Shown here: piece after piece, positions 13,843 through 39,273 of the stretch
Layout of the letters: each line of letters begins with the position of its first letter
Position numbering within the stretch: the stretch's first letter is position 1
From: Elusimicrobiota bacterium
Lineage (GTDB): Bacteria; Elusimicrobiota; Elusimicrobia; F11
Reading direction: 5' to 3'
Assembly: GCA_044221725.1 (NCBI GenBank)
Contig: JBGAON010000005.1
Coordinates: 64,001 to 128,000 of the forward strand
Length of the DNA stretch: 64,000 nt
The notes under the pieces: model-generated
The model's database searches: none
What the model was told of the DNA's origin: nothing
What the model saw: the letters and a program-made list of their open reading frames with translations, nothing else
Made by a program: the position numbers and the translations under genes

Positions 13843-13881
13843 TTGACTTAGTATCAACGTTTAAGATATAAAGCCGGTCCC
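13843..13881 (+). promoter_or_regulatory. rRNA operon sigma70-type promoter
   Basis: TTGACT-18 nt-TATAAA, AT-rich upstream tract and GC-rich discriminator GCCGGTCCC. Confidence 0.7.
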
Positions 13882-13892: not shown

Positions 13893-13942
13893 CCCCGCGA
13901 AGATTATATTGCTTCGCGAGGCCATTTTTTTGTTCTTTGACA
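13893..13942 (+). promoter_or_regulatory. boxB-like hairpin and boxA antitermination signal
   Basis: CGCGAAG...CTTCGCG hairpin, then TGTTCTTTGACA; second boxA-like TGTTCTTTA at 16157. Confidence 0.65.
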
Positions 13943-15951: not shown

Positions 15952-16024
15952 GGGGCTGTAGCTCAGCTGGGAGAGCGCCTGCTTTGCAAGCAGGAGGTCG
16001 CCAGTTCGATCCTGGTCAGCTCCA
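15952..16024 (+). tRNA. tRNA-Ala(TGC), CCA not encoded
   Basis: Cloverleaf GGGGCTG/CAGCTCC, anticodon loop TTTGCAA, TTCGA loop. Confidence 0.97.
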
Positions 16025-16051
16025 GGATTAAAAGAATCAGCCAAACCATTC

Positions 16052-16125
16052 GGACCCATAGCTCAGCTGGTTAGAGCGTACGCTTGATAAGCGTAAGGTC
16101 GGTGGTTCGATCCCACCTGGGTCCA
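16052..16125 (+). tRNA. tRNA-Ile(GAT), CCA not encoded
   Basis: Cloverleaf GGACCCA/TGGGTCC, anticodon loop TTGATAA. Confidence 0.97.
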
Positions 16126-16341
16126 TTTCTATTTCGGTGTCTATAAACAGATTTCTTGTTCTTTACATATTTGTCTTATTTTTCGTTCTGTTCTCAAAAG
16201 CCGTCCGGCTCCACGCGATGGAGGTAGGATTCCTTGAGGAGGATTCAGTCGAACGAAATAATAACTTAAGGGAAAAAAATTAAGAAATAAGCGTCAATAG
16301 GATAGACGGATTTTAAACCGATCCGTCATATTCATTAATGC

Positions 16342-19375
<3,034 letters not shown>

Positions 19376-19473
19376 TATTGATGAATAGAATGTTCGCCAT
19401 CCTTTTGGCGAACGCCTGTTGGCGCTTATTTTTTAGTTTTTTTCCGAGTTAAAAGATTTTTTAGAGGAACGAA

Positions 19474-19591
19474 TGCTGGTGGTAATTCCAAAGAGGTCAC
19501 ACCCGTTCCCATTCCGAACACGGCAGTTAAGCTCTTTAGGGTCGATGGTACTTGTACCGCAAGGTACCGGAAGAGTAGATCGCTGCCAGCA
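19474..19591 (+). rRNA. rrf: 5S rRNA
   Basis: TGCTGGTGG...CACCCGTTCCCATTCCGAACACGG...GCTGCCAGCA. Confidence 0.97.
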
Positions 19592-19611
19592 TTGGTTCCT
19601 CTGGAAATTTG

Positions 19612-20412
19612 ATGAGACATTTGAAATTCGGTTTCGTAGTTATCGGAACTTTTTTTCTAATCAGTAAAACTCAAGCAAGCGAGGTTTTTTCATCGGCCGA
19701 TTCGATGGAAGCCAAGAGCTGGAGTTTTTCTGCTTTTGGTTCGACCAGTAGACTCGAGCCAAAGGTGAAAGTCACGAATAACGGATCGGTTCAGGTGCCA
19801 ACGTCAGGTGGCTCTACTTCGGTGTTCGGGACAACGAACGCTGAAATAAAAATGGAGCAAGAGTCGGAGCAGGTTGTGGGACTCTTTGAATTTCAGCCCC
19901 ATGACGGTCTGAAATACAGATTTAAGATCGGGCAAGTTCGAGAGTTTAATCTTGAGTTTTCATCCGGAAGCCAGACCAACAAGTTGGAAACCACAGGAAG
20001 CGGTTTTGTGTGGGGTGTCGGCATCGGTGGAAGTTTGGCCCCAAGTTCGATTGTTAGTTTAGGAATCCGCTGGGATGTGGCGTACGCGCAGACGAATGTA
20101 AATTTGGACCGGTTGCAAGGTGGTCCGGCCGCGTATGCGGTGGATCAAGATTTTCGACAAGAAGAGATTCAGGGCAGCTTGACACTGAGTCGACGTTGGA
20201 AAATGGTTGAACCGTACGGTGGAGTTAAAGTTTTCCATTTGATGAATCGTCTCGTTGATAACGGGACGAAAGAGAAAATTAAGGGCACGAATGACGAGGT
20301 GAGCCCGTTCGTTGGTTTGCAATGGATGGTCGCCGAGAAGGATAGTTTGGTGATAGAAGGTTCTTTCGTTGGAGAAAAGTCGTTGTCCGCGGGATTTAAA
20401 GCACAATTTTAA
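19612..20412 (+). CDS. Outer-membrane beta-barrel protein, function unknown
   Basis: Signal peptide ending TQA, alternating amphipathic strands (EPYGG, SPFVG), C-terminal LSAGFKAQF beta-signal. Confidence 0.75.
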   Translation: MRHLKFGFVVIGTFFLISKTQASEVFSSADSMEAKSWSFSAFGSTSRLEPKVKVTNNGSVQVPTSGGSTSVFGTTNAEIKMEQESEQVVGLFEFQPHDGLKYRFKIGQVREFNLEFSSGSQTNKLETTGSGFVWGVGIGGSLAPSSIVSLGIRWDVAYAQTNVNLDRLQGGPAAYAVDQDFRQEEIQGSLTLSRRWKMVEPYGGVKVFHLMNRLVDNGTKEKIKGTNDEVSPFVGLQWMVAEKDSLVIEGSFVGEKSLSAGFKAQF

Positions 20413-20426
20413 ATTGAGGGAAAAAT

Positions 20427-20954
20427 ATGGCGAGTGCAGTTAAAGAAAAACAAGTTGCGAGTTTGGCCGAAGAGTTGAAAGCGTCTCCGCATGTGGTGAT
20501 TACCCAATACCAGGGAATGACAGCGGAGCAGTTTGATGCTTTGCGGGCAGCGCTTCGTCCTCTTGGCGCGAAGTACAAAGTCGTGAAAAATCGCTTGGCC
20601 AAAATTTCTTTCAATGAAACCGGTTACGGTGATCTTAAAGACCTTATGAAAGGTCCGTCGGCTATTGCATACAAGGGAACCGATGGAGCTGCGATCGTCA
20701 AAGCCCTTTTCAAATTTGGTGAAGCCAATACGAATTTTAAAGTTAAAGCTGGACGTCTTTTTGGAATCACAGCGGATGTTAAAAACCTAAAAGCGATGGC
20801 GGACTTGCCGTCGCGTGAAGTACTCCTAGCCACGCTGTTGGCTCGTTTGAACGGGCCACTGACCAGCCTCGTTACAACGATGAACGAACCCTTGCGCTCG
20901 CTGCATGCCGCGATGAGCGCCCTTGCTAAGAAGAAAGAAGCGAAGGCAGCATAA
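20427..20954 (+). CDS. rplJ: 50S ribosomal protein L10
   Basis: VVKNRLAKI, LPSREVL; directly upstream of rplL. Confidence 0.96.
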   Translation: MASAVKEKQVASLAEELKASPHVVITQYQGMTAEQFDALRAALRPLGAKYKVVKNRLAKISFNETGYGDLKDLMKGPSAIAYKGTDGAAIVKALFKFGEANTNFKVKAGRLFGITADVKNLKAMADLPSREVLLATLLARLNGPLTSLVTTMNEPLRSLHAAMSALAKKKEAKAA

Positions 20955-21048
20955 TTTTCAAATCATAATGTCCGCCATTAAGATTGGCGGGCGCTATCGC
21001 GCAAATCCGTCGTGTGGATCATGGCGTTAGTTGATAAGGAGGAACAAA

Positions 21049-21435
21049 ATGGCACAAGTTACTGTTGAAGACTTCGTCGAATCTCTCGAAAAGTGGACGA
21101 TTCTCGATATCAGCAAAGCAGTTAAATCAATCGAAGAAAAATATGGAATTTCAGCCGCCCCTGTTGCTGTCGCCGCCGCACCCGCCGCTGGTGGCGCTGC
21201 TGGTGGAGCCGCTGCAGAAGAGAAAACCGAATTCACGGTGATGTTGACCGGCGCCGGCGCCAATAAGATCCAAGTGATCAAAGTTGTTCGTGAATTGACC
21301 GGACTTGGACTCAAAGAAGCGAAAGACCTCGTTGAAGGCGCACCAAAACCAGTGAAAGAAAACGTGGACAAGAAAACCGCGGAAGAACTGAAAAAGAAAC
21401 TCGTTGAGCAAGGCGCGACCGTAGAAATTAAATAA
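21049..21435 (+). CDS. rplL: 50S ribosomal protein L7/L12
   Basis: [38 protein letters not shown]. Confidence 0.98.
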
Positions 21436-21550: not shown

Positions 21551-24500
21551 TTGAAAAAGACATCATTTGCTCGGATTAAGCCAGTTATCGAAATTCCCCA
21601 ATTGCTTGAAATGCAACGGGCCTCGTACCGTGAATTTTTGCAAGACGAAGTTCCGGTGAAAGAGCGGAAGATTCAAGGTCTTCAAGCGTCCTTCATGGAC
21701 ATTTATCCGATCATCAATGGCGACGAAAGCCTCGCTCTTGAATTTGTTCAATACAATCTCGGCACACCGAAGCACACCATTGAAGAAGCCATTGATAAAG
21801 ATGGCACCTACGCGGCCCCTCTGAAGGCTGTCATGCGTTTGGTTCACCGCCAGCCCTCCGGAAAACCAAAAGTCCTCACCGAACAAGAAGTTTATCTTTG
21901 CGAGTTGCCGCTCATGACCGAAACCGCTTCCTTCGTTATCAATGGTGCGGAACGCGTTGTTGTCAGTCAGCTGCACCGTTCGCCGGGCGTTATTTTTGAA
22001 GAAGACGAAGAGAAAAATATTTCGTCGTACGGTAAAAATCTTTTCTTCGCGCGCATCATTCCTTATCGTGGCGCTTGGGTTGAATTCGAATTCGATTTGA
22101 ACAACGCGATCTTCGTCCGCATCGACAAGAAACGCAAATTTCCGGCCACCACGCTTCTGCGCGCTGCCGGTATTGAAACCAACGCACAAATTCTTGAACT
22201 CTTCTACGACACCGAAACCTTGCCGGTTGAAGGCGGTAACCTCGCGGGCCGCGTGCTTGCCGACGATGTTGTTGAAAATGAAACCGGCGAAGTGTTGCTC
22301 GAAGCAAACGCCGAAATTTCGAAGGAATCCGCGCTGCGCTTTCAAGAAAAGAAAATTAAGAACGTGAAAGTTATCATCACGGACCCAGCGCTCAACGACA
22401 TTGCGATCCGCAACACGCTGCTCAAAGATCCGGTCCGCAGCCGCAAAGAAGCGATCCATCAAATCTACCGCGTCGTCCGTTCGCAGGAATTTATTGTTCC
22501 GGAACAGGCTGAAAATTATCTCGACACGCTACTTTTCAAATCCATCCGTCACTACGACTTCACAAAAGTCGGACGCTTCAAAATTAACCGCAAACTCCTT
22601 CCGCTCTATTCGAACCTCATTAAGAAGAAAGGCTTCGGTTTTGAAATTCCAGCGGAACGCCGCCGTACGTTGAGCTTGGAAGACATTATCGTGACGTTGC
22701 AATACGTGATCGCGCTCAACAACGGTCAAACATCGATCAAAGTTGGCGACGATCAGATTAAAGTTGAAGTCGACGACATCGACCATCTTGGAAACCGCCG
22801 CGTTCGTGGCGTGGGCGAATTGCTCGAGAACCAAATCCGTATGGGCTTGGCGCAAATGTCCCGTATGGCGCGCGACCGCATGAATCTGCAAGACGAACCG
22901 AACCCGACGCCGCGCTCGGTATTAAACACCGCGCCCGTGGCTGCCGCGGTCCGCAAATTCTTCGGATCGAGTCAGCTGTCGCAATTCATGGATCAAACAA
23001 ATCCTCTTTCGGAGCTTACGCACAAACGTCGTATGTCGGCTCTTGGCCCGGGCGGTTTGCACCGGAAACGCGCCGGCTTCGAAGTGCGTGACGTTCACCA
23101 TACTCATTACGGACGTATCTGTCCGATCGAAACTCCGGAAGGACCGAACATCGGTCTCATTACGTCGCTGGCTTGCTTTGCGCGTATTAACCAATATGGT
23201 CTTATTGAATCTCCGTATCGCGCCGTGAAGAAAGGAGAAGTTTCCGACGAAGTCGAGTACTTAACCGCGGACAAAGAGGACGATTACACGGTTGCACAAG
23301 CAAACGCGGCGATCGACAAAAGCGGGAAATTCCAAGCCGATCTCGTGGCGTGTCGTTTCCGTGGCGACTTCCCGCAGAAGAATCCGAACGACATTAATTT
23401 CATGGACATCTCACCCGCCCAGGTGGTCTCTATTTCCACCGCGCTCATTCCGTTTCTTGAGCATGACGATGCGAACCGCGCTCTCATGGGCTCGAACATG
23501 CAACGGCAAGCAGTTCCATTGCTCGTTCCCGAAGCACCGTTCGTTGGAACCGGCATTGAAGCGGCTGTTGCGCAAGACTCTGGCGCCGCGCTTGTGGCGC
23601 GTCACGCTGGTGTTGTGACATCCGTGTGGAGCGATCAAATTGCAATTTATACCGACGAAGGCGATGTGGACATTTACCGCCTTCGCAAATACGCGCGTTC
23701 GAACCAAGATACCTGCGTAAACCAAATTCCGTATGTGAAAGTTGGTGACCGCGTGAAAAAAGGCGACGTGGTTTGCGATGGTCCGTCCACGGATCAAGGG
23801 GAGCTCGCGCTCGGCAAAAATCTCACCGTGGCGTTCATGCCGTGGGAAGGGTACAACTTCGAAGACGCTATTCTTTTGAATGAGAAACTGGTTCGCGAAG
23901 ATCTTTTTACATCGATTCATATTTCCGAATTCCAAATCGAAGCGCGCGACACAAAGCTCGGTGCCGAAGAAATTACGCGCGATATTCCAAACGTGGGCGC
24001 CGATGCGCTTGTGAATTTGGACGAAAACGGAATCATCCGCTCGGGCGCCGAAGTCGGACCCGGCGATATTCTCGTCGGTAAAGTTGCACCGAAAGGCGAA
24101 CAACAAATCACGCCGGAAGAGCGCCTCCTGAAAGTTATCTTCGGTAAAAAAGCCGAAGACGTGATGGACGCTTCGCTGCGCGTTCCGCCGGGAATCCATG
24201 GAAAAATTATTGCGACACGTTCGTTCATCCGCAAAGAGAAGCTGAGCAAGAAAGAAGAAAACAAGCGGATGAAAGACATCGAGACCGAACTCGAAGACAA
24301 GCTCGCTTGGATTCGTGAGCAGAAAAAAGAACGTCTCGCTCGCTTGGACAAAGAACTCGACGCGAAAGAAATTTCCCCGAAGCAAGCGTCGGAAGGCAAA
24401 GACGAAGCCAAGGCGTTGGCTCAGAAATTGGAATCCGAGGCGCGCCTTGAAGCTGCGCGTCTCAAAGAAAATCTTAAACATGGCGATGACTTGCCGGTGA

Positions 24501-25369
24501 CCGTGAACCGCGTTGTGAAAGTGTTCATCGGAATGAAACGCAAAGTGCAAGTCGGCGATAAGCTCGCCGGTCGCCACGGAAATAAAGGTGTGGTTGCGCG
24601 CGTGATGTCGCCGCAAGACATGCCGTACATGCCGGATGGAACCCCGGTCGACGTGGTTCTTTCGCCGCTTGGCGTGCCATCGCGTATGAACGTTGGACAG
24701 CTCTTGGAAGTCATGTTGGGTTGGGCTGGAAAAACGCTCGACACGCACATGATTACGCCGGTGTTCGATGGTGCGAAAGAAGAACAGATTCTGGATGCGG
24801 TTCGTCAAGCGAAAGACAGCTTGCGCAAATCCGGCGTCCGCGAAGATTATCTGCCCGGCGATTATTGCGACATGACTCTTTACGATGGTCGCACCGGTGA
24901 ACCGTTTAGTGAAAAAGTGACGGTCGGTGTAATGTACATGCTGAAACTCGCGCACATGGTAGAAGACAAAATCCACGCGCGCTCGACCGGCCCGTACTCG
25001 CTTATCACGCGCCAGCCGCTCGGTGGAAAAGCGCAGTTTGGCGGTCAACGCTTCGGTGAAATGGAAGTGTGGGCGATTGAAGGTTATGGCGCCGCGCACA
25101 TCCTGCAAGAATTCTTGACTGTTAAATCCGACGATGCGAACGGCCGTACGAAAATGTACGAAGCCATTATCCGCGGCGAATCCGTGACCGAGCCGGGTAT
25201 CCCCGAATCGTTCAAGGTGTTGGTCCGCGAGTTGCAATCGCTCGGCGTCAATGTTGAACTGCTCCGTCAAAAAGATGGTACGTCCACACAAGCACTGGAC
25301 TTGACGGACGAAACCCAGAAAGAACCGGAAGCCTCTGCTATAGGCGGAGCTGCGAAGGAGAGGGAATAA
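21551..25369 (+). CDS. rpoB: RNA polymerase beta subunit
   Basis: [21 protein letters not shown] and [12 protein letters not shown] start after AGGAG. Confidence 0.99.
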
Positions 25370-25372
25370 GTC

Positions 25373-28300
25373 ATGGATACAATTACAATCGATAAGAAAA
25401 AAGATCTTCCGCGCGCCGGCAAAAAGAAAGGCGTTCCGGCCGTAAACTTCTCGGACTTCGATTCGATTCGTTTGTCCGTGGCCAGCCCCGAAGAAATTCG
25501 GTCGTGGTCGCACGGCGAAGTGCGCAAACCAGAAACCATTAACTACCGCACGTTCAAACCGGAACGCGACGGTCTTTTCTGTGAACGCATATTCGGCCCG
25601 GTCCGTGACTGGGAGTGCGCGTGCGGAAAATACAAATACATTAAATACAAAGGCACCGTCTGTGATCGTTGCGGCGTTGAAGTCACCGAAGCAAAAGTTC
25701 GTCGCGAGCGCATGGGCTCCATCGAGCTTGCTGTGCCAGTCGCACACGTTTGGTATCTGCGCAAAGCGCCGTCCCGTATTGGTTCGCTGCTCGGCATTCG
25801 TCTCACGGATCTGGAGAAGATTTGTTACTACGCGCGTTTCGTCGTTTTGGAAGATATTAAGTCCGAAGACGGCAAAGTAAAATTCCCAGCCAAAACCCTT
25901 TTGACGGACGAGGAATATCACAAAGTCCGACAAGAGTACGGCGAAAAAGTAAAAGTTGGAATTGGCGCCGATGCGATTCGCCAGCTCCTTGAAAGAATTG
26001 ATTTGCCAGGCGAAGTGAAATACATCCGCGAACGCTTCAAGAACATTGAATCCGAAGCCGAGCGCAACAAACTTATTAAACGTCTTCGCATCGTCGAAGG
26101 ATTTTTGCATTCGAAGAGCCGTCCGGAATGGATGGTTCTGACCGTGCTGCCGGTGATTCCACCGGACTTGCGCCCACTCGTGCCGCTCGAAGGTGGTCGT
26201 TTCGCAACCTCCGACTTGAACGATCTTTACCGTCGCATTATCAACCGCAACAACCGGTTGAAACACATCGAGTCGCTCCGCGCTCCGGAAGTCATGATTC
26301 ACAACGAAAAACGTTTGCTGCAAGAAGCGGTGGACGCGCTCATTGAAAACGGCGCCCGCGGCAAAGTGGTCGTTGGTGCGGGTGGACGTCCGCTCAAATC
26401 TCTGTCGGACATTCTCAAAGGAAAACAAGGCCGCTTCCGTCAGAACTTGCTCGGTAAGCGCGTCGACTATTCCGGCCGCTCCGTTATCGTCGTCGGTCCG
26501 AACTTGAAAATGAATCAGTGCGGATTGCCGAAGGAAATGGCGCTCGAACTTTTCAAGCCCTTTATTATTCGTGAGCTCATGAAACGTGAGAACATCACGT
26601 TGAAAGCTGCGAAGCGTATGTTGGAACGCGTGAAACCCGAAATCTGGGACATTCTCGAACAAGTGACGAAAGACCTCCCGATCTTGCTGAACCGCGCTCC
26701 TACGCTGCACCGTCTCGGCGTGCAAGCTTTCATGCCGGTCTTGATCGAAGGTAAATCCATTCAGTTGCACCCGCTCACCTGCGCCGCGTTCAACGCGGAC
26801 TTTGACGGTGACCAAATGGCCGTGCACGTGCCGCTCTCGATTGAAGCGCAGCTCGAAGCAAAGCTTCTCATGCTCGCATCCAACAACATCTTGTCGCCTG
26901 CGTCCGGTAAACCCATCGCGGTTCCGTCACAAGACATGATTCTTGGTATCGCTTACATGACGAAGATGAAACGTGGCGTTCTCGGCGAAGGCCGTTTCTT
27001 CGCGACGCGCGAAGAAGTGACGTCCGCGTTCCAGAACGAAACGATCTCGCTCCACGCCCGCATCAAAGTGGCCGGCATCAACAAACTTGTTGAAGACGGT
27101 CTCTCTGAAGACGATCAACGCAACCCCGACAAATGGACGTCATGGACGACCGTCGGTCGCGTGATCTTCAATGGCATTGTTCCGCCGGAGATGGGCTACA
27201 TCGACGTGAACATCACAAAGAAAGAAATTTCAAAACTCGTGGACCGTGCGTACCGTGAACTTGGTGCGTATCGTACGTCCACCTTCTTGGATCAAATCAA
27301 AAAGCTTGGTTACACCTACGCAACGAAAGCCGGTCTGTCGATCTCCGTTCAGGACTTCCACATTCCGTCTCAGAAAAACGAACTCGTGACGAAAGCGTTC
27401 GCGCAAGCGAAAGAAATCGCGAAGCAAGCGAAGATGGGTATCATCACCGACTCCGAGCGCTACAACAAAATCATCGACTTGTGGACGCACGTGACGGACT
27501 CCATTGCTGATCACATGTTTGATCAGATGCAAAAACAAGAAGCCGACAAATTAAAAGAAGGCGCGAAGAAGTTTAACCCGGTGTTCTTGATGGCCGACTC
27601 CGGTGCGCGCGGAAGCCGCCAACAAATCCGTCAGCTCGGTGGTATGCGTGGTCTCATGCAGAAACCGCAAAAGAAGCTGACCGGTGCCGTCGGTGAAATT
27701 ATCGAAAACCCGGTTATCGCGAATTTCCGCGAAGGCTTGTCGGTTCTCGAGTACTTCATCTCGACGCACGGAGGCCGCAAAGGTTTGGCCGATACCGCTC
27801 TTAAAACAGCCGACGCCGGTTACTTGACGCGCCGTCTCGTTGACGTCGCGCACGACATTGTCGTGACCGAAGAAGATTGCAAAACCATCAACGGCGTGTC
27901 CGTCGGAACGCTGATGACCGGAGAAGACGTGATCGAAACACTCGAAGAACGCGTGATCGGTCGCGTGACGCTCGACAATATCGTTGATCCGCTCACGGAC
28001 GAAGTGATCGTGAAAGCGAACGAAATGATCTCCGACGAGCAAGCGAAGAAAATTACGAAAGCCAGCATTGACCGCCTGCGCATCCGCTCGATCCTAACCT
28101 GCGAAGCGAAGCACGCGGTTTGCACAAAGTGTTACGGACTGAATCTCGCCACCGGCCGCATGGTCGAAGTCGGCGAAGCGGTTGGAATCATCGCCGCTCA
28201 GTCGATCGGTGAACCTGGTACCCAGCTGACGCTGCGAACCTTCCACATCGGTGGAACCGCCAGCCGCGTTATTCAACAGTCGCAAGTGCTCGCGAAAGAA

Positions 28301-29521
28301 AGCGGCGCCGTTCGTTACCATGGCGTGCGCACGCTGACGAACCGCGAAGGAAACGAAATCTGCGTGTCGCGAAATGGTTTCTTATCCATTCGTGAAACCG
28401 GCGGAAAAGAACGCAACCATTACGAAGTTCCGTACGGTGCGCGCGTGAAAGTGGCCGAAAATAAGCACGCTGAGAAAGGCGACCTGCTCGTTGAGTGGGA
28501 CCCGTACTCGCTTCCGATTATTACGGAAGAAGAAGGAACCGTGAAGCTCGAGGACGTCACCGAAGGTATCACGCTCCACGAAGAAAAGAACCGCATCACC
28601 GGTCTTATCGAAAGAAAAATTATTGAACACCGCGTGGAAGCTTTGCATCCGCAAGTTGTCGTTATCGGCAAATCAGGCAAAGCGGTCGCAACGTATCCGC
28701 TGCCGGTTGACACAAACCTCGTCGTTCAAGACGGCGACAAAGTGAAACAGGGCGATATCGTGGCGAAGATTCCGCAAGAAATCTCGAAGTCGAAAGATAT
28801 CACCGGCGGTCTGCCGCGCGTTGCCGAATTGTTCGAAGCGCGCAAACCGAAGAGCCCGGCCGTTATCTCGGAAATCGAAGGAACCGTGAAACTTGCTTCG
28901 ACACCCAAAGGTGGCCTCAAAGTCATCGTGACGAACGAAGACACGGGCTTGCAACGCGACTACAACGTGCCGCAAGGCAAACACTTGGTCGTGTACGAAG
29001 GGGACCGCGTCGGTGTTGGTGAGCCCATCGTGGACGGAGCAATCAACCCGCACGACATCTTGAAAGTCAAAGGTGCCAAAGAAGTGCAGGAATTCCTCGT
29101 GAACGAAATTCAAGAGGTGTACCGTCTGCAAGGCGTTATCATCAACGATAAACACATTGAAATCATCGTGCGCCGCATGTTGTCGAATGTGGCCATCACG
29201 AAATCCGGAGCAACAGATTTGTTGGCCGGAGAAATTGTGCCGCGCACGCGTTTTGCGGCGCTGAACAAAGGCGTGAAACGCGGTGAGCAGGCCGAAGCGC
29301 AGCCGGTGCTTTTGGGTATCACGAAAGCATCGTTGGCGTCCGAGTCCTTTATCTCAGCAGCCAGCTTCCAAGAAACGACGCGCGTGCTTGTGGAAGCGGC
29401 AACGACCGGTGCGGTTGACGAACTGCTTGGTCTCAAAGAAAACGTAATCATCGGTCATTTAATCCCGGCGGGAACGGGCTTCTATGAACGGAAACTAATT
29501 GAAGAGTCGGAGAAGAAATAA
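25373..29521 (+). CDS. rpoC: RNA polymerase beta' subunit
   Basis: Catalytic NADFDGD and N-terminal Zn finger. Confidence 0.99.
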
Positions 29522-29910
29522 TGCCAACAACCAGTCAACTCATTCGCGGTATTCGCGAAGCACAAACCAGCAAAACAAAATCTCCGGCGCTTGAGAATTG
29601 TCCGCAGCGTCGCGGAGTTTGCACGCAGGTAAAGACAACGACACCGAAGAAACCAAATTCCGCGCTTCGAAAAATCGCGCGTGTGAAATTGACCACCGGT
29701 GTTGAGGTGACCGCCTACATTCCCGGTGTCGGTCATAACTTGCAAGAACACTCGATCGTCATGATTCGCGGCGGCCGCGTGAAAGACTTGCCCGGTGTGC
29801 GTTATCACATCATTCGCGGTGTGCTCGATTCCGCTGGGGTGACCGACCGCAAACAAGGTCGTTCCAAATACGGAGCGAAGCGACCCAAAGCCAAAGAAGG
29901 AGCGAAATAA
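29521..29910 (+). CDS. rpsL: 30S ribosomal protein S12
   Basis: [11 protein letters not shown] and [10 protein letters not shown]. Confidence 0.99.
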
Positions 29911-29913
29911 GCC

Positions 29914-30393
29914 ATGCCACGCAAAGATTTAAAAGCAAAAGATCGTCGCTCGGGACCGGGTCCAGATCCGGTTTACAAATCGGTGCTGGTCTCCCAGCTC
30001 GTGAACAAATTGATTTATGGCGGCAAGAAATCAACGGCCGAACGGATCATTTATGGTGCGTTGGAAAAGATTAAAGAAAAATCCGGCGAAGAACCGATGG
30101 CAACGTTCAACCGTGCGATCGAAAATGTTCGTCCGTTGCTCGAAGTGAAAGCCCGCCGCGTCGGTGGCGCAACATACCAAGTGCCGTCCGAAGTAACGCC
30201 GGCCCGCGGAACTGCTTTAGCGATGCGTTGGATCTTGACATTCTCTCAGTCCAAAACGGGTAAACCGATGAAAGAACGTTTGGCCGAAGAGCTTTTGGCG
30301 GCCAGCAAAAAAGAAGGACTTTCTATTAAGAAGCGCGAAGACACGCACAAAATGGCGGAAGCCAACAAAGCGTTCGCGCATTACCGTTGGTAA
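29914..30393 (+). CDS. rpsG: 30S ribosomal protein S7
   Basis: [11 protein letters not shown] and [13 protein letters not shown]. Confidence 0.99.
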
Positions 30394-30402
30394 ATTAATC
30401 CC

Positions 30403-32496
30403 ATGGCCACAGCGACAAAAGAAAAAGAAGTAGAAAAATCCAAAATCCGGAACATCGGAATCATTGCGCACATCGACGCGGGTAAAACCACGACGACCGA
30501 GCGTATCCTTTACTACACGGGGCGTATTTACAAGATCGGCGAAGTTCATGAAGGCAACACCGTCATGGACTGGATGGAGCAAGAACGTGAACGTGGTATT
30601 ACCATCACGTCGGCTGCCACGTATTGCACGTGGAAAGAATGCACGTACAACATTATCGATACCCCCGGCCACATTGACTTCACGGCCGAAGTGCAACGCT
30701 CGCTGCGGGTGTTGGATGGTGCGGTTGTTTTGCTCGACGGTTCGCAAGGTGTCGAGCCACAATCCGAAACCGTTTGGCGCCAAGCCACGGAATACCATGT
30801 GCCGCGCATTGTTTTCGCGAACAAAATGGACAAGCTCGGTGCGGATTTCTACATGTGTCTTGACTCCATCCACTCGAAGCTCGGTGCGAATGCGGTGGCG
30901 ATTCAGTTGCCGATCGGTATGGAATCAACGTTCAAAGGCATCATCGATTTGATCAAGATGAAAGCGCTCGTGTGGACCGGCGAAGAGCTCGGAGCAAAAT
31001 TTGAAGAAGTCGAAATTCCCGAAGACCAGCTCGAGCAAGCAAAAAAATATCGCGAGACGATGATTGAAAAGCTCGCGGACTTCGACGATGAGTTGGCACA
31101 CAAATATCTCGACGGCAAAGAAATTACCGTTGATGAAATTTACAAGGTCATGCGCAAAGCAACGATCACTGGAAAATTTTTCCCGTTCATGTGCGGCACA
31201 TCGTTCAAGAACAAAGGTGTTCAGCCGTTGCTTGATGCGGTTAATATGTACCTGCCATCGCCAGTAGAAGTTCCGACGTTGAAAGGGACCGATCCGGATA
31301 ACGGTGAAGAAGTAACGCGCGAGAAAATTGATTCAGCGCCGCTCACCGCTTTGGCATTCAAAATTCAAACCGACCCGCATGTCGGAAAATTAACGTTCGT
31401 TCGCGTGTATTCGGGCAAGCTCACCGCGGGCACCGAAGTTTATAACTCGACCAAGAAAACGCGTGAGCGCATCGGTCGCATCTTGCGCATGCACGCCGAC
31501 AAACGCGAAGAAGTTCAAGAAATCACCGCCGGTAACATTGGTGCCGTGATTGGTCTCAAAGGGGTAACGACCGGTCAAACCATTTCGGATGAAAACAAGC
31601 CGATTGTTATCGAGCCGCCGAAATTTCCAGAACCCGTGATCTCTCTCGCTATCGAACCGAAGTCGCAAGCCGATCAAGAGAAGCTTGGTATCGCCTTGGG
31701 TCGACTTGCCGAAGAAGATCCGACGTTCAAAATCCGAACCGATCAAGAAACAGGCCAGACGATTATTTCCGGTATGGGCGAACTGCACTTGGAAATTTTG
31801 GTCGACCGCATGAAGCGCGAATTTAAAGTCGAAGCGAACATCGGTAAGCCGCAAGTAGCGTACCGCGAAACCATTCGCAAGCAAGTGGAGCAAGAAGGCA
31901 AGTACATTAAACAATCCGGTGGTCGTGGTAACTATGGTCACGTTTGGGTCACGATTGAACCGAACGAAACCGGCAAAGGTTACGAGTTCATCGACAAGAT
32001 CAAAGGCGGACGTATTCCGAAAGAATATATTCCGTCCGTTCAGAAGGGATTGTTGGGTGCGCTCGACTCTGGCGTCGTTGCTGGATACCCGGTGGTCGAC
32101 GTGAAAGTGACGCTTTTCGACGGAAGCTTCCACGAAGTGGACTCGAACGATATGGCGTTCCAGATTGCCGCATCGATGGCCTTCAAAGACGGATGCAAAA
32201 AAGCGAATCCGTATTTGCTCGAACCAATCATGCGCATTGACGTCGTGACGCCAAAAGATTACATGGGCGATGTGATCGGCGACTTGAACCGTCGTCGCGG
32301 TCGTATTGACAACGTCGAAGACAAAGGCGTGATTCAATACATTCACGGTTTCGTTCCGTTGTCGGAAATGTTTGGGTACGCGACCACGATTCGTTCGTTG
32401 TCGCAAGGCCGCGCTTCTTACTCAATGGAGCCGAGTCACTACGAAGAAGTGCCGCGAAATATTGCAGAGGAGTTAGTCGCAACAGCAAAAGTTTAG
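30403..32496 (+). CDS. fusA: Elongation factor G
   Basis: [23 protein letters not shown] and GMGELHL. Confidence 0.99.
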
Positions 32497-32499
32497 AGC

Positions 32500-32591
32500 C
32501 GTCATCCTGGCACGTTTTTAGCCAGGATCCATTTTTACTTCAGGTAAAGTGGGCCCTACATCCTAATCGATAAATAAGGTTGTAGGCGACG
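32500..32591 (+). repeat. Family-1 three-hairpin palindromic repeat (REP/MITE-like)
   Basis: CGTCATCCTGGCA..GCCAGGATCCATTTTTAC..GTAAAGTGG..GGCGACG; homologous to copies at 48252, 54177 and 54970. Confidence 0.85.
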
Positions 32592-32606
32592 AATTTAGGA
32601 GAAGAT

Positions 32607-32954
32607 ATGGCAGATAGAGCAGCAACTACTTTAGACGCGCAGAGAATTCGCATCAAATTGCGAGCTTACGATTATCGTATGTTGGACGATTCGTTGGCCA
32701 AAATTGTGGACACCGTTCAACGGACCGGTGCGAACTTGTCGGGACCTGTTCTCTTGCCAACTTCCATAAAAAAGTATACAGTGCTGCGCTCTCCACACTC
32801 GGACAAGAAATCGCGTGAGCAGTTTGAAATGCGAATTCATAAAAGATTGGTGGATATTGTAGAGCCAACACCTCGAACGGTAGAAGAGCTTCGAAAACTC
32901 GATTTGCCCGCCGGTGTCGACGTCGCTATTCAACTCCCTAGAATAGACTTCTAG
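32607..32954 (+). CDS. rpsJ: 30S ribosomal protein S10
   Basis: [10 protein letters not shown] and [12 protein letters not shown]. Confidence 0.98.
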
Positions 32955-32990
32955 AGGAGATTTTTGCTGTTTTTTTAAAAAGAAAAATTT

Positions 32991-33746
32991 ATGGGTCAAG
33001 AAACGAAATTAAATAACGAAGAACAAAAAACCGGGGATGCCGGAGCAGCCGCTGCTGTTGAAGCAGCTCCGCTCAAAGGAATTGTTGGTACAAAAATTGG
33101 CATGACACGCGTGTTTGTGGATGATTCGCGCATGGTGCCAGTGACGGTAATTTCAACCGAAGGCAATGTTGTGACGCACGTGAAAACGAAAGCGTCCGAC
33201 GGTTACGACGCCGTGCAGGTTGGTTACGGCGATGTAGCGGATAAAAAACTTTCGAAAGCCGAAGTGAATCACCTGACGAAAAAAGGTTTGACATCGAAAC
33301 GCTGGCTCAAAGAGTTCCGCGTGAGCGATGTGTCTCCTTTTAAAGTGGGCCAGCCGGTTCCGGTCACGGTGTTCACGAAAGGCGAATGGTTGCAGGTGTC
33401 GGGCACAACGCGCGGCAAGGGGTACGCCGGTGTTATTAAAAGACACGGTTTTGCCGGTCTTCCGTATAGCCATGGTAACGGCGAATATCGTCGTCACCCG
33501 GGCACAAACGGTGCGCAAGGTCCGCAACATGTTCTTCCGGGAACGCGCAAGCCTGGTCACATGGGTGTTGTGTGGTCCACGGTCCCCAAAATCGAAGTTG
33601 TGGATGTTGATGCCGAAAGAAATTTGATTCTTCTCCGGGGATCGATCCCTGGTCCAAACGGAAACCTCGTTGTTCTTAAACCAACGAGCCGCGCTGTGAA
33701 GGTCTCAGTCCAACCTCAGCAAGCCAAGCCGAAAGCGAAGAAATAG
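32991..33746 (+). CDS. rplC: 50S ribosomal protein L3
   Basis: KIGMT, DGYDAVQ, GKGYAGVIKRH and GHMG. Confidence 0.97.
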   Translation: MGQETKLNNEEQKTGDAGAAAAVEAAPLKGIVGTKIGMTRVFVDDSRMVPVTVISTEGNVVTHVKTKASDGYDAVQVGYGDVADKKLSKAEVNHLTKKGLTSKRWLKEFRVSDVSPFKVGQPVPVTVFTKGEWLQVSGTTRGKGYAGVIKRHGFAGLPYSHGNGEYRRHPGTNGAQGPQHVLPGTRKPGHMGVVWSTVPKIEVVDVDAERNLILLRGSIPGPNGNLVVLKPTSRAVKVSVQPQQAKPKAKK

Positions 33747-33783
33747 TTTTAACCCAAAATCCCAGAGTTGAGATAAAGAATTT

Positions 33784-34419
33784 ATGGAACTTAAAGTTAT
33801 TGATAATTCAGGTAAACAAAGCGGCAGCGTGCAATTTGATGAAGCGCTCGTGACAACCAAAACATCGCCAGCGTTGTTGCACGAAGTTGTTGTCGCTTAC
33901 CAAGCAGGCCTTCGACAAGGTACCCATTCCGTGAAAACACGGTCGATGGTGTCCGGCGGTGGTCTTAAGCCATGGCGTCAAAAGGGCACCGGTAATGCGC
34001 GTTCGGGTTCAACGCGGTCCCCGCTCTGGCGCAAAGGCGGCGTTATTTTTGGTCCGGTCTCGCGCGATTACACACAGGCTCTTCCGAGAAAGAAAAAGCA
34101 AATTGCGTTTAAGATGGCCGTGAAAGCATTGATCGAAGACAATCGCATTCAAGTGGTTGATCCAATTAAGCTCACCGAAGCAAAAACGAAACACGTGGCC
34201 GCCGTGTACGCAAAGTGGCAAGCCCCCACCAATTCCATTTTCCTCGTAGAAAAATCCGATTCAAATTTCGCAAAAGCATCCCGCAACATTTCGAACGTCA
34301 CGGTGTCCGATGTCGCCACGTTCAACGTGTACGATTGTTTGCGCGCGCGCCGCGTGTTTATCACAAAAGCGGCGCTCGAACAGCTCACCGCGCGGATCTC
34401 CGCAAAGGCAGAAAACTAA
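33784..34419 (+). CDS. rplD: 50S ribosomal protein L4
   Basis: KPWRQKGTGNAR and GGVIFGP. Confidence 0.98.
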   Translation: MELKVIDNSGKQSGSVQFDEALVTTKTSPALLHEVVVAYQAGLRQGTHSVKTRSMVSGGGLKPWRQKGTGNARSGSTRSPLWRKGGVIFGPVSRDYTQALPRKKKQIAFKMAVKALIEDNRIQVVDPIKLTEAKTKHVAAVYAKWQAPTNSIFLVEKSDSNFAKASRNISNVTVSDVATFNVYDCLRARRVFITKAALEQLTARISAKAEN

Positions 34420-34420
34420 C

Positions 34421-34702
34421 ATGTCTGAAGTTTTGAGAAAACCTCTCGTCACTGAAAAATCCACGCGCATGCGCGAGGGCAACCAATACGTGATCGAAGT
34501 GGACACAGCGGCCAGCAAAGGTGCCATCCGTTCGGCCATCGAACAACGCTTCAAAGTGAACGTCGTGAGTGTTCGTACCGTGAAAGTTCTTGGAAAATAC
34601 CGTCGCAAAGTGGGACCGATGGGCGGTTATCAACCGGATCGCAAGAAAGCGATTGTGAGTATAAAAGAAGGCCAAACCATTAAGTGGGAGGAAGTAGCCT
34701 AA
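34421..34702 (+). CDS. rplW: 50S ribosomal protein L23
   Basis: PLVTEKS and KKAIV; operon position. Confidence 0.96.
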   Translation: MSEVLRKPLVTEKSTRMREGNQYVIEVDTAASKGAIRSAIEQRFKVNVVSVRTVKVLGKYRRKVGPMGGYQPDRKKAIVSIKEGQTIKWEEVA

Positions 34703-34717
34703 GGCTCCTGAAATTTT

Positions 34718-35566
34718 ATGCCATTGAAAACATTTAAACCTTATACACCCAGCCGTCGATCAATGTCCGTCGAGGACTTTTCGTGGTTGACAAAGAAAGA
34801 ACCTGAAAAACGTTTGCTCCGTCCGCTGCCGAAAACCGGCGGTCGCAACAACACGGGACAAATCATGGTGCGCCACATTGGTGGCCGTCACCAACGCCGT
34901 TATCGCGTGATCGATTTCCGTCGCGACAATTGGGGCATTCAAGGTCGCGTTGTGGCGCTTGAGTACGACCCGAACCGCACGGCGCGCATCGCATTGATTC
35001 ATTTTGTGAATGGCGATAAGCGCTACATCATTTATCCCGAGGGCCTTAAGGTCGGCGACAAAATTTCGGCTGGTCCAAACGCTGAAATCAAAGTCGGTAA
35101 CGCGCTTCCTCTGCATGCGATGCCCGAAGGTAGCGTGATTCACAACATCGAACTCGTGCCCGGCAAAGGCGCACAAATCGTTCGTTCGGCCGGTGGTGCG
35201 GCTCAGTTAATGGCGAAAGAGAGAGAGTTTTGTCAGGTCCGGCTTCCGTCCGGTGAAATTCGTTTGATTCCGTCCACAGCGATGGCGACGATCGGACAAG
35301 TTGGAAATTTGGAACATGAAAATCTTTCGTGGGGTAACGCCGGTCGTTCGCGCCACATGGGTGTGCGTCCGACGGTTCGTGGTACGGCCATGAACTCGGT
35401 TGATCACCCGCACGGTGGTGGTCGCGGCCGTTCGAAAGGTAACAATCAACCGCGTTCGCCGTGGAATCAGCCCGCGAAAGGTTACAAGACACGCACGCGG
35501 CAACACACGGACTGGCTGATCGTTCGCGATCGCCGTGCCAACAAAGCCGTCGTGGCAGCTGCATAA
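34718..35566 (+). CDS. rplB: 50S ribosomal protein L2
   Basis: EYDPNR and [17 protein letters not shown]. Confidence 0.99.
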
Positions 35567-35592
35567 TTTAGGAATTCCGGAGGAACACTCAC

Positions 35593-35880
35593 TTGAGTCG
35601 CTCAACAAAGAAAGGCCCGTACATCGATCAAAATCTCATCGAAAAGATTGAGAAGATGAAAGAGAAAGGCGAAAAGAAAGTCATTAACACATGGGCCCGC
35701 AACTCGGACATCTCGCCGGATTTCGTCGGTTTCACGATCGGAATTCACAACGGTCGCAAATTCTTGCCGATTTATATTTCGGAACAAATGGTTGGACACA
35801 AACTCGGTGAATTTGCGCCGACCCGTTTCTTCAAAGGTCACGGCGCCGCTCACACGAAAGAAGCGTCCTCGCTTACATAA
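35593..35880 (+). CDS. rpsS: 30S ribosomal protein S19
   Basis: SRSTKKGP and [16 protein letters not shown] start. Confidence 0.98.
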
Positions 35881-35888
35881 AGGGAATC

Positions 35889-36227
35889 ATGGAATCTATT
35901 GCTATTGCCAAACATCAACGTTTTTCGCCCCGCAAGGTGGGCCAAGTTCTGGGTCTCATCCGAGGGAAATCGGTCGCGACCGCTTACAACATTTTGCCGA
36001 CCGTGCCTCGCGCTGCCGGTATCATGGTTTTCAAAACATTGAAAAGCGCATTCGCGAATTCCGGCGCCGGCGATGCGAACACGATGTACGTGAAAGAAGC
36101 GTGGGTGGACAATGGTCCGGTGCTGAAGCGCGTCATGCCGATGGCCATGGGCGCACGCGGCATCATGAAGCGAAAGACGTGTCACGTTACGATCCGGTTA
36201 TCGGATCAGAAACCAAAGAAAAAGTAA
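35889..36227 (+). CDS. rplV: 50S ribosomal protein L22
   Basis: SPRK, SAFAN and VDNGP; operon position. Confidence 0.95.
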   Translation: MESIAIAKHQRFSPRKVGQVLGLIRGKSVATAYNILPTVPRAAGIMVFKTLKSAFANSGAGDANTMYVKEAWVDNGPVLKRVMPMAMGARGIMKRKTCHVTIRLSDQKPKKK

Positions 36228-36245
36228 AAAGTTTAGGAGAAGACA

Positions 36246-37031
36246 TTGGGTCATAAAATATCGCCAAAGGCACTTAGAGTCGGTTATATCCAGGATTGGG
36301 AATCGCGTTGGTACGCGCCCAAGGACATGCCGGATTTGATCGAAGAAGATTTTCGTATTCGCGCTTTCTTGAAAGAACGGTTCCGCATGGCGGCCTTGTC
36401 GAAAGTGACGATTGAGCGGACGGGAAAATATGTTCGTGTGAATTTGCACACGGCGCGTCCGGGTGTGATCATCGGTAAAAAAGGCGCGGATATTGAGGAA
36501 CTCAAGAAACAAGTTCAAGATATGACCGCGTCGGAAGCGACGATCAATGTTGTTGAAATTAAACGTCCCGAACTTGATGCTCAGCTCGTTGCTGAAAGCG
36601 TGGCGTTCCAATTGGAAAAACAAATTGCGTTTCGCCGTGCGATTAAACGTGCCATTGAACGAACCATGCAAGCGGGTGCTGGTGGAGTAAAAATTATGGT
36701 GGCCGGACGTCTGGGTGGCGCCGAAATCGCGCGCACCGAATGGGCCATGGAAGGCCGCGTGCCGCTTCACACGTTCCGTGCGGACATCGATTACGGATTT
36801 ACCGAAGCGCATATCACGATGGGCCGTATCGGCGTGAAATGCTGGATCTTCAAGAAGGAATTCTTCTTGAAATCCGAGAAAGATTTGCTCAAAGAAGCAG
36901 AAGTGACGCCGCTCACGGCGCCGACGCCAGTGGAAGTGGGCGTTGCGGCCGGAGTGGCACCGACCCCGGTAGAAGAAGCAGTGCTTTCGGCCGGTGAAAC
37001 CACCGAGAAAGATTCTCCGATTGAGGGATAA
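36246..37031 (+). CDS. rpsC: 30S ribosomal protein S3 with acidic C-terminal tail
   Basis: ARPGVIIGKKG, GRLGGAEIAR and PLHTFRADIDY. Confidence 0.98.
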   Translation: MGHKISPKALRVGYIQDWESRWYAPKDMPDLIEEDFRIRAFLKERFRMAALSKVTIERTGKYVRVNLHTARPGVIIGKKGADIEELKKQVQDMTASEATINVVEIKRPELDAQLVAESVAFQLEKQIAFRRAIKRAIERTMQAGAGGVKIMVAGRLGGAEIARTEWAMEGRVPLHTFRADIDYGFTEAHITMGRIGVKCWIFKKEFFLKSEKDLLKEAEVTPLTAPTPVEVGVAAGVAPTPVEEAVLSAGETTEKDSPIEG

Positions 37032-37037
37032 GATTTT

Positions 37038-37460
37038 ATGTTGATGCCAGCACGAGTTAAATTTCGCAAAAGCCATCGCGGTCGCTTGAAAGGTTCGGCT
37101 CACAAGGGTTGCACGCTTGCTTTTGGTGAGTATGGATTGCAGGCGCTTGCCAACAAGTGGATTACCGCTCGTCAAATCGAAGCGGCGCGGGTGGCGCTGA
37201 CGCGCTACACGAAAAAAGGCGGAAAGATGTGGGTCCGCATTTTTCCAGACAAACCAATTTCACAGAAACCAGCGGAAACCCGCATGGGAAAAGGAAAAGG
37301 CGACCCGGCGTTCTGGGTGGCTGTTGTGAAACGCGGTCGGATTCTTTTCGAGATGGAAGGAATTACCTCCGTCGAGGCCAAGCAAGCAATGAAAGTGGCT
37401 TCCGATAAATTGCCGATCCAGTGTCAGTTTGTTGACCGCGTCGGCGTATCAAGGATTTAA
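37038..37460 (+). CDS. rplP: 50S ribosomal protein L16
   Basis: RQIEAAR and RMGKGKG. Confidence 0.99.
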
Positions 37461-37463
37461 GTT

Positions 37464-37688
37464 ATGGCGAAAGAAAAAGAATTTAATTACAAGCAGGCGA
37501 GCGAAGGCGATCTTCGTGCGCGCTTGCAAAAAACACAACAGGATCTGTTTAAGCTCCGTTTCCGCGCGGCATCCGCTCCCCTCAAGGATACGATGGCGAT
37601 TCGCAAATTGCGTCGTGAAGCGGCCCGCATTTCCACTTTTATGAATCAGAATGAGAGAGCTGCCGCTGCGCAGGGGAGTAAAAAATAA
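37464..37688 (+). CDS. rpmC: 50S ribosomal protein L29
   Basis: LFKLRF..IRKLRREAARI; operon position. Confidence 0.93.
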   Translation: MAKEKEFNYKQASEGDLRARLQKTQQDLFKLRFRAASAPLKDTMAIRKLRREAARISTFMNQNERAAAAQGSKK

Positions 37689-37972
37689 TGAGCGAAGAAA
37701 CACGATCGTCACGGCGAGTTCTTGAAGGCTGGGTTGTGTCGGACAAAATGGACAAAACCCGCGTTATCGCGATTCGGTGGTCCAAGCGCGATTCGCACTA
37801 CGAAAAAGTGCAACGCGTCACCACAAAAGTTTACGCACACGATGAGAAGAACGAAACACACGAAGGCGACAAAGTGCGCGTGATGGAAACTCGTCCCCTT
37901 TCTGCGAAGAAAAGATGGCGCATCACCGAAGTGTTGGCCAAGAATCCGGCAGCGTTGGCGGCGGTGAAATAA
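37688..37972 (+). CDS. rpsQ: 30S ribosomal protein S17
   Basis: [13 protein letters not shown] and ETRPLS. Confidence 0.98.
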
Positions 37973-37973
37973 C

Positions 37974-38342
37974 ATGATCCAACAACAAACATATTTAACG
38001 GTTGCTGATAATTCGGGCGCGCGTGAGCTCATGGTTATTCACGTGTCCGGTTCGTCCGGCCGTCGGTACGCCGGCATTGGCGACAAAGTTGTGTGCGCGG
38101 TGAAAGATGCTCTTCCGGGCGCCACGATTAAAAAAGGTGACGTTGTGAAAGCGGTTGTGGTTCGTCAGCGCAAAGAATCGCGTCGCGTCGATGGAAGCTA
38201 TATTCGATTTGATGACAATGCCGGTGTCGTGATCAACGACGAAGGCGAGCCGCGCGGCACGCGTATTTTTGGTCCCATCGCGCGTGAACTTCGTGAAAAA
38301 AATTATTTGAAAATTATTTCGCTCGCACCGGAAGTGTTATGA
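37974..38342 (+). CDS. rplN: 50S ribosomal protein L14
   Basis: ADNSGA and GTRIFGP..SLAPEVL. Confidence 0.99.
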
Positions 38343-38668
38343 ATTCAATTCGAAAGCACGACAAAGTAAGAATTCTTTGGGGCAAGGATCGCGGAAAGGA
38401 AGGCGAAGTGATCCTCGTTGAACCAAAGAAGAGTCGCGTTTTGGTGGCGAAGATCAATTTGGCAAAGCGGCACACGCGCCCACAGGGCCAGGCCGAAGGC
38501 GGAGGAATTAAAGACAAAGAGCTTTTCTTGCCGCTCGCGAAAGTGATGTTGATTGATCCGGACACAAAGAAACCAACGCGACCAAAGTTTGATCGGTTAA
38601 CGGACGGAACGAAAATCCGTCTGTGCCGCGCAACGGGCACCGTGATTCAAGAGCCAAAGAAACGATAG
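38339..38668 (+). CDS. rplX: 50S ribosomal protein L24
   Basis: KOW motif GKDRGKEG; operon position. Confidence 0.96.
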
Positions 38669-38685
38669 TTTGAGGAGATGTTTTT

Positions 38686-39273
38686 GTGAGCGCAGAGAGC
38701 AAATCAACTAATACAACACCACGGTTAAAAGAAGCCTTCGTCGCCGCTGGCGTGAAGATGCTTCAAGAGAAGCTGGGAAAAACGAACGTAAACGCGGTTC
38801 CGCGTTTGGAAAAAATCGTTATCAACATTGGCGTTTCGGCCGCACGTGAAAATATCAAAGCGTTGGATATCGCGACCGAAGAGTTGGCCCAGATTACCGG
38901 CCAAAAACCCACGGTTCGTAAATCCAAGAAGTCCATTTCCGCGTTCAAACTTCGTGAAGGAATGCCGATCGGTGTTGCTGTCACGCTGCGTGGCGCGCGC
39001 ATGTACGAATTTTTGGATCGGTTTATCTCGATCGCCGCGCCGCGTATCCGCGACTTCCGCGGGCTGAATCCGAGCGCATTCGATGGCGGCGGAAACTACA
39101 ATTTGGGAATCAAAGAGCAATATATTTTCCCGGAAGTGAACGTTGAAAAGTCCGACGCTCCCCGCGGCATGAACATCACGTTTGTGACGAGCGCACAGAG
39201 CGATAAGGATGCTTACGAGTTATTGAACGTGCTCGGATTGCCGTTCGCGAAAGATAAGAATAAGAAGAATTAA
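38686..39273 (+). CDS. rplE: 50S ribosomal protein L5
   Basis: FKLREG, PRIRDFRG and IFPE. Confidence 0.98.
   Translation: MSAESKSTNTTPRLKEAFVAAGVKMLQEKLGKTNVNAVPRLEKIVINIGVSAARENIKALDIATEELAQITGQKPTVRKSKKSISAFKLREGMPIGVAVTLRGARMYEFLDRFISIAAPRIRDFRGLNPSAFDGGGNYNLGIKEQYIFPEVNVEKSDAPRGMNITFVTSAQSDKDAYELLNVLGLPFAKDKNKKN

Follow-up and report, generated by a model that had tools for sequence, protein, structure and literature searches.

The only rRNA operon of an Elusimicrobiota bacterium lies directly upstream of its ribosomal-protein and RNA polymerase genes and may supply their mRNA

Gene order at the locus and across Elusimicrobiota

The DNA analysed here is a stretch of 64,000 nt (the window, positions 64001-128000 of contig C2, whose own positions serve as coordinates) from the genome of an Elusimicrobiota bacterium (G000), 2.82 Mb in 5 contigs and 94%-complete. 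It holds the sole rRNA operon (rrn) of this genome, in the middle of a 333-kb contig, and co-oriented downstream of it the rpoBC-str-S10-spc-alpha cluster of ribosomal-protein and RNA polymerase (RNAP) genes. All features mentioned are on the + strand. The only 16S rRNA gene of the genome (14296..15852) is followed by tRNA-Ala(UGC) and tRNA-Ile(GAU) (15952..16125), 23S rRNA (16342..19376) and 5S rRNA (19475..19591), also the only copy found. After a spacer of 20 nt (19592..19611) begins a gene for a putative outer-membrane β-barrel protein (OMP) of 266 aa (19612..20412), whose stop codon (20410-20412) is 14 nt from the ATG of rplJ (20427). Then come rplJ-rplL (20427..21435) and rpoBC-rpsLG-fusA-S10-spc-secY-adk-map-infA-rpmJ-alpha (21551..48204), identified with NCBIfam and Pfam.

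From rplJ through rplQ, there are at least 27 ribosomal-protein genes together with rpoBC, fusA, secY, adk, map, infA and rpoA, i.e. about half of the ribosome's proteins plus the RNAP genes. Between rpoB and rplQ, 32 of the 33 scanned open reading frames (ORFs) match NCBIfam, an ORF of L29 size being assigned by its position; L10, L12 and S10 match Pfam. The initial annotation of this DNA had pointed out the 14-nt distance, the co-orientation and the tight packing to rplQ (48204) and beyond, and all three hold: every called gene of at least 450 nt keeps the + strand until 69039, past the window end. It had also placed a pre-5S stem at 19463-19470 (AGAGGAAC) and 19595-19602 (GTTCCTCT), ending 9 nt before the OMP ATG at 19612. 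These coordinates are right; counting G-U pairs lengthens the stem (5′ arm at 19458..19474) to 19458-19470/19595-19607, only 4 nt short of the ATG. In this form it covers the sole Shine-Dalgarno (SD)-like sequence, a weak GGA at 19603-19605.

This order is widely shared. Among 150 genomes of the phylum, 89 of them from two families, 132 contain an L10 match, 116 a 5S match above the cut-off (three matches below it were dropped) and 114 both. In 103 of these 114, 5S lies upstream of rplJ, co-oriented, on the same contig and within 16 kb; the distance is within 3 kb in 88 of them and within 500 nt in 33. In the remaining genomes, 5S and rplJ are on different contigs (9) or far apart in opposite orientation (2). 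Each of the 27 families scored for both markers has one linked genome or more. With 103 of 114 genomes sharing it, the layout is far beyond chance. In same-genus relatives, homologous OMP genes follow 5S, with the ATG 14 and 15 nt after it. Synteny in related genomes, which the initial annotation had named as a check, is borne out by these numbers: the gene order is real and near-universal in the sampled phylum.

The ORF at 19612..20412 is assigned to outer-membrane β-barrels by its predicted barrel fold, signal peptide and C-terminal aromatic residue. It displays an N-terminal signal-like helix and a C-terminal Phe, and its AlphaFold2 model, from a 48-sequence alignment, reaches a pLDDT of 87. 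The best Foldseek matches are omptin-fold barrels (8-12% identity, TM about 0.55), while ESM Atlas gives 0.98 to OMP clusters. The porin 9oq7 is matched at E = 1e-4. No Pfam family is matched at E<=0.001, and no omptin Pfam match occurs among the 48 homologues; the likeness to omptins is one of fold only. A word-based search gave only 18 homologues.

The tRNA-tuf-rpmG-secE-nusG-rplKA block is located on another contig (C5) and not between rrn and rplJ. It carries the only tuf (G000:C5:188742-189932) and ends at rplA, followed by a gene that, from its sequence, we take to be Rieske-type. In the cluster itself tuf is absent after fusA, and rpsJ begins 110 nt later (32496-32607). Across the phylum, none of 131 genomes has rplA less than 2 kb from rplJ. 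In one genome of the family f7 (G068, locus L111), rplA ends about 2.4 kb upstream of 16S in the same orientation, and in 10 f7 genomes it lies 11-61 kb upstream of rplJ; this placement suggests that the former rplA|rplJ junction became the site of rrn. In another genome (G144:C4:57930-74558), rplA is found 16 kb downstream of rplJ, as tuf-tuf recombination would give.

Several other features were observed along the way. Ile-Ala is the commoner order of the spacer tRNAs in rRNA operons, and here they are arranged Ala-Ile. Short palindromic repeats occur in the larger gaps of the cluster (32501, 48253, 39283, 44933 and 21455); their three patterns have 22, 9 and 4 matches in the genome, and they might serve in mRNA stabilisation or punctuation. 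Among the relatives, partial duplications of the 3′ half of 5S are located just after 5S in L068, L075, L089 and L091, the 23S gene of one carries a group I intron (L003:2597-2826), and a c-di-GMP-I riboswitch precedes the OMP gene at a locus that shows no 5S (L005:325-402).

Leaders, promoters and terminators before rplJ

To compare what separates 5S from rplJ, 85 loci were picked for family spread and sorted by the content of this interval. In class A (31 loci from 15 families, including this genome) the OMP gene abuts rplJ; in class B (5 loci) the OMP gene is followed by an L10 leader, the regulatory element of rplJ; in class C (10 loci) 5S is within 170 nt of rplJ; class D (22 loci) displays a leader and no OMP gene; class E (8 loci) consists of f7, with inserts of more than 1 kb; class F (9 loci) groups the others.

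Since the class rules use gap size and leader pattern, leader counts by class are partly a matter of construction. Leaders were therefore also searched for separately, with a phylum-specific covariance model of the L10 leader built from 15 phylum leaders, which recovered 10 of 13 held-out class-D leader loci at E<=0.01. The same model gave no match in the window or the genome, nor at the loci of classes A (30 relatives), C (10) and E. The Rfam model RF00557 also gave no match in this genome, and independently called L10 leaders in four B and two D loci. A rough tree of L10+L12 (77 of the 85 loci, 299 columns, midpoint root) displays six changes of leader state; the family f1 is placed next to the leader-bearing f10, and f7 is nested among leaderless lineages. 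This suggests repeated loss of the leader and a later uncoupling in f7. A peculiar case is f16 (L044, L049, L053 and L092), in which the leader is located about 60 nt after 5S and 0.7-1 kb before rplJ, with an unrelated ORF between leader and rplJ in three of the four loci.

Promoters were scored in a blunt scan, with a generic matrix of E. coli frequencies. Scores of at least 10.5 within 300 nt before rplJ occur in 1/31 loci of class A, 1/5 of B, 2/10 of C, 9/22 of D and 8/8 of E, and scores with p<=0.05 against shuffles in 0, 0, 2, 6 and 4 loci, respectively; this contrast is in part one between coding and non-coding sequence. In alignments, the best conserved promoter column has a median of 12-13 in f7 and 12.5 in f10, and the rplJ promoters of both families are near-consensus and conserved. 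The corresponding medians are 5.2 in f1, where the column is a universal 5S sequence, 3.9 in f14 and 2.7 for five related families taken together. Between 23S and rplJ, the 8 family loci of the lineage under study contain no conserved sigma70 promoter column.

Terminators were evaluated with a de Hoon-type score d, with lambda 0.144 from the available part of PMC1187862. A first caller was dropped, as it accepted long imperfect hairpins in signal-peptide codons, and this stricter score was used instead. Strong terminators after 5S (d>2) are present in 1/31 A, 0/5 B, 0/10 C, 3/22 D and 6/8 E loci; the six in f7 have d of 2.6-6.5. Class C remains without any site even at d>0 (0/10). The tightest junctions are those of f14, with 24-124 nt between the end of 5S and the rplJ ATG (24 nt in L058, the extreme), a terminator in 0/6 loci and no conserved promoter. 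Where rrn and rplJ have been pushed apart, terminator and promoter both appear; where they are tight, neither is seen.

Read-through transcription and its alternatives

From the comparative data, we think it rather probable that the rrn promoter supplies most of the mRNA of the cluster from rplJ onward, by partial read-through. A sigma70 promoter for rrn is predicted at 13843..13872 (TTGACT-18-TATAAA), where it outscores any other site of the 130 nt upstream of the leader boxA; its position and -35 are the same in two family relatives, with scores of 8.6, 11.9 and 14.8. BoxA-like antitermination motifs, detected by a pattern drawn from the general consensus, are located in the rrn leader (13931..13942) and in the 16S-23S spacer (16158..16167). 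Among 19 relatives whose 16S is complete at the 5′ end, 15 match the leader motif. Since the genome also encodes NusB, antitermination is likely. Downstream, the two arms of a 23S processing stem (16262..16345 and 19371..19455) cofold at -93.3 kcal/mol. A U-rich run at 19417-19445, considered as a terminator, was rejected because it belongs to the 3′ arm of this stem and pairs with the 5′ flank of 23S.

The events could then be as follows. A boxA-antiterminated RNA polymerase would pass 5S, and Rho could not load before the OMP gene because only about 4-9 unpaired nt precede its ATG. RNase III and/or RNase E/G, both encoded in the genome, would cut the pre-5S stem and free 5S; the mRNA would then begin with a processed end no more than about 20 nt away from the OMP start, and the weak SD would be uncovered. 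RNase M5 (rnmV, TIGR00334) gave 0 matches in this 94%-complete genome, and RNase J and RNase Y no match above the cut-off. Most polymerases would probably be released early in the weakly translated OMP gene, given its weak hairpin followed by U7, its weak SD, its low codon adaptation (22nd percentile, compared with 87-99.7 for rplJ, rpoB and rpoA) and the presence of Rho. Such a release would scale rRNA-level flux down to mRNA-level flux, and the remaining polymerases would transcribe rplJ onward. With coupling of this kind, neither the L10 feedback leader nor a dedicated rplJ promoter would be needed any longer, and both appear to have been lost several times.

The hairpin invoked here (19631..19657, OMP codons 7-15) is a candidate, not an established, flux throttle. 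With an energy of -6.1 kcal/mol and d = 0.75, it is the best post-5S site of this genome; only one other site between 19592 and 48400 has d>0, with a lower value, and both are weak. Its d is reached by 1 of 100 synonymous recodings. Sites of this kind (d>0) exist in 7/31 class-A loci, with p<=0.01 in 5 of the seven when compared with synonymous recodings; of 352 gene starts of this genome that resemble signal peptides, 10 have one too. The initial annotation had reported no terminator hairpin and no SD before the OMP gene. The first statement is valid for the 20-nt spacer and missed this hairpin within the gene, which could limit read-through; the second is approximately right (SD duplex of -3.3 kcal/mol) and weak as an argument, because fusA, rplC, rplN, secY and rpoA pair as weakly or more weakly.

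RNA evidence comes from four metatranscriptomes of three studies, as unstranded contigs with depths of about 3-8; they were not used to rank genes, and gaps in cover were not taken as evidence. In X7, a fragment with adapters on both sides (19580-19718) begins with the last 12 nt of 5S, crosses the spacer and continues for 107 nt into the OMP gene, and a second fragment spans 23S, spacer and 5S; contigs of X7 and X14 bridge OMP and rplJ. These fragments are compatible with read-through and prove nothing, as DNA carry-over is possible; the DNA run X4 has no cover of the 5S-OMP junction.

Several points weigh against read-through as the main source. The junction fragment has a depth of 3.5 and may derive from DNA; its 12 nt of 5S fall short of the 31-nt rule of the mapping. 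Contigs of X20 and X19, from two other studies, start at 19610 and 19620, positions as compatible with a new transcription start as with processing. The throttle hairpin is not conserved, d>0 being limited to the 7/31 class-A loci already mentioned, and the 89-nt region evaluated for folding is no more stable than shuffled sequences. Little can be concluded from the missing terminator, because intrinsic terminators are rare in the whole genome (d>0 at 9/274 convergent gene ends, 24/521 tight same-strand junctions and 4/49 tRNA/tmRNA flanks) and Rho is present. A second, shorter Rho-like ORF (G000:C1:43615-44448) matches model positions 135-412 only, and second Rho matches occur in several same-class genomes. 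The class counts are not independent either, the loci being related and hand-picked for family spread. Finally, f10 keeps a dedicated promoter right after 5S (3/3) and other lineages keep the L10 leader; the phylum-wide order does not, therefore, by itself require read-through.

The most serious alternative is that of concatenated operons: rrn would end by Rho or at the weak hairpin near the start of the OMP gene, and a hidden promoter, non-consensus or species-specific, would drive rplJL-rpoBC onward from within the OMP gene, 5S or the 23S-5S spacer, like the terminator-promoter overlaps documented for Salmonella in this gene cluster (PMC6735719, available part). We consider it plausible, yet on balance improbable. 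A candidate inside the OMP gene (20179..20207, TTGACA-17-AATGGT) scores 9.8, in the range of the intergenic sites of tuf and rplU (9.5 each) and above the genome's own rrn promoter (8.6), though in a blunt scan. Other promoter-like sites are found in the 23S-5S spacer (8.6) and between rplJ and rplL (7.4), and an AT-rich candidate at 19430-19458 reaches 10.5 under a genome-trained model. That model, derived from the upstream regions of the genome's tRNA genes, was dropped as main test, since it gives rrn only 6.1 and coding background up to 12.3. The clear promoter of the sister family f10, 16-38 nt after 5S, and the presence of Rho in 149 of 150 phylum genomes also speak for this alternative. 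However, the 20179 site, that of the 23S-5S spacer and the AT-rich candidate all lack conservation of position among 8 family loci, and the first is no better than shuffles (p = 0.275). In f7 and f10, genuine rplJ promoters are both conserved and near-consensus. In f14, where the gap leaves little room, a promoter is seen in 1/6 loci (L073), and transcription of the OMP gene itself would in any case require read-through, or else a start within 5S. Further along, no promoter-like site above 3.9 was found in the gaps before rpoB, rpsJ, rpmJ, rpsM and rpoA or after rplE. The blunt scans place the 20179 site and the hairpin at 19631 apart, with no overlap.

It could also be supposed that read-through is not throttled at all, nearly every rrn polymerase running through the whole cluster, about 34 kb to rplQ and up to about 55 kb of co-oriented genes, with mRNA level set by decay and translation initiation. 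The scarcity of terminator-like sites, in the cluster as in class C, the lack of an RNase J match in the genome and the general resistance of boxA-antiterminated polymerases to Rho go in this direction. Nevertheless, the weak SD and low codon adaptation of the OMP gene invite polarity and, because rRNA is needed in far more copies than ribosomal-protein mRNA, such a unit would waste most of its elongation; we regard it as rather improbable. As for the possibility that a collapsed rRNA repeat was misassembled, metagenome assemblies are often interrupted at rRNA operons and the contigs of many relatives do end at rrn, but a single operon in the middle of its contig, the same order in 103/114 genomes, single-contig assemblies included, and homologous OMP genes after 5S in same-genus genomes already refute it, to near certainty.

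Read-through from rrn as the main mRNA source is thus likely, although unproven. The initial annotation had proposed that a boxA-antiterminated rrn transcript also supplies the mRNA for ribosomal proteins and RNAP. The proposal gains more from comparison (synteny, no L10 leader, no conserved promoter, the terminators and promoters of f7) and from one RNA fragment than from its own premises, which turned out to be weak, and the species-specific promoter candidate at 20179 is held against it. A wider scenario can be tentatively drawn, and it is possible rather than probable when taken as a whole: in much of Elusimicrobiota, one promoter would serve rRNA, at least 27 ribosomal proteins, EF-G, SecY and core RNAP; pre-rRNA processing would excise the mRNA; a poorly translated OMP gene would act as flux throttle; this coupling would have repeatedly replaced L10 feedback; and f7 would later have been uncoupled through a terminator and a new promoter.

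In textbook bacteria, the balance between rRNA and ribosomal proteins is indirect: promoters are separate, and ribosomal proteins act as repressors of their own mRNA whenever rRNA runs short. In Elusimicrobiota, the only rrn is placed directly upstream of the ribosomal-protein and RNAP cluster, and the phylum holds coupled, intermediate and uncoupled versions of the arrangement. If read-through is true, it would offer a direct alternative to autogenous control, tying both halves of ribosome production to one promoter, and whether feedback leaders become dispensable once rRNA and ribosomal-protein genes share a transcript could then be tested. Should read-through not hold, the 5S-(OMP)-rplJ order would remain a marker of near-universal occurrence in the phylum as sampled, useful in binning to link contigs of 16S/23S/5S to those of ribosomal proteins.

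Relation to known systems

Our literature search found no description of the 5S-OMP-rplJ order or of rrn read-through into rplJ, though a mention in Elusimicrobia genome papers or supplements is possible; the gene order is apparently undescribed. An rrn placed ahead of the transcription-translation supercluster, from which tufB-secE-rplKA separates it, is an old arrangement in Gammaproteobacteria, and in Salmonella the operons of this supercluster are joined by terminator-promoter overlaps (PMC6735719; the available part of this paper does not mention Elusimicrobia). As far as that part goes, the two systems share a co-oriented rrn upstream and a contiguity kept over long times. They differ in that the tufB and secE-nusG operons and rplKA, which lie between rrn and rplJ in the supercluster, are elsewhere in the Elusimicrobiota locus, where the OMP gene fills the gap and tuf is missing after fusA. 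Moreover, the supercluster operons have their own promoters overlapping terminators, whereas no conserved promoter or terminator was found here.

L10 leaders have a wide distribution (Fu et al. 2013, PMC3616713, available part). Compared with an rplKAJL-rpoBC operon carrying an L10(L12)4 leader (RF00557), the rplJL-rpoBC order is kept here, and in many Elusimicrobiota lineages the leader is still located between OMP, or 5S, and rplJ. In contrast, rplA never adjoins rplJ (131 genomes), and searches for the leader were negative both in this genome and in the tight lineages.

The locus is hence neither an intact supercluster, nor an L10-regulated operon, nor a terminated rrn. Standard rRNA operons combine boxA antitermination with strong terminators after 5S, such as T1/T2 of E. 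coli rrnB. With these, the locus shares the 16S-tRNAs-23S-5S order, two boxA, long processing stems and NusB, but it lacks a strong terminator after 5S, and an ORF starts 4 nt past the extended pre-5S stem. Cotranscription of rRNA and mRNA is known from plastids and mitochondria, from Haloarcula, with a ribosomal-protein gene linked to rrnC, and from Mycobacterium, with murA-rrn. In those cases as in the model proposed here, protein genes share a transcript with rRNA and the ends are made by processing. They concern organelles or single genes, whereas the Elusimicrobiota locus would involve the main ribosomal-protein and RNAP cluster of a phylum.

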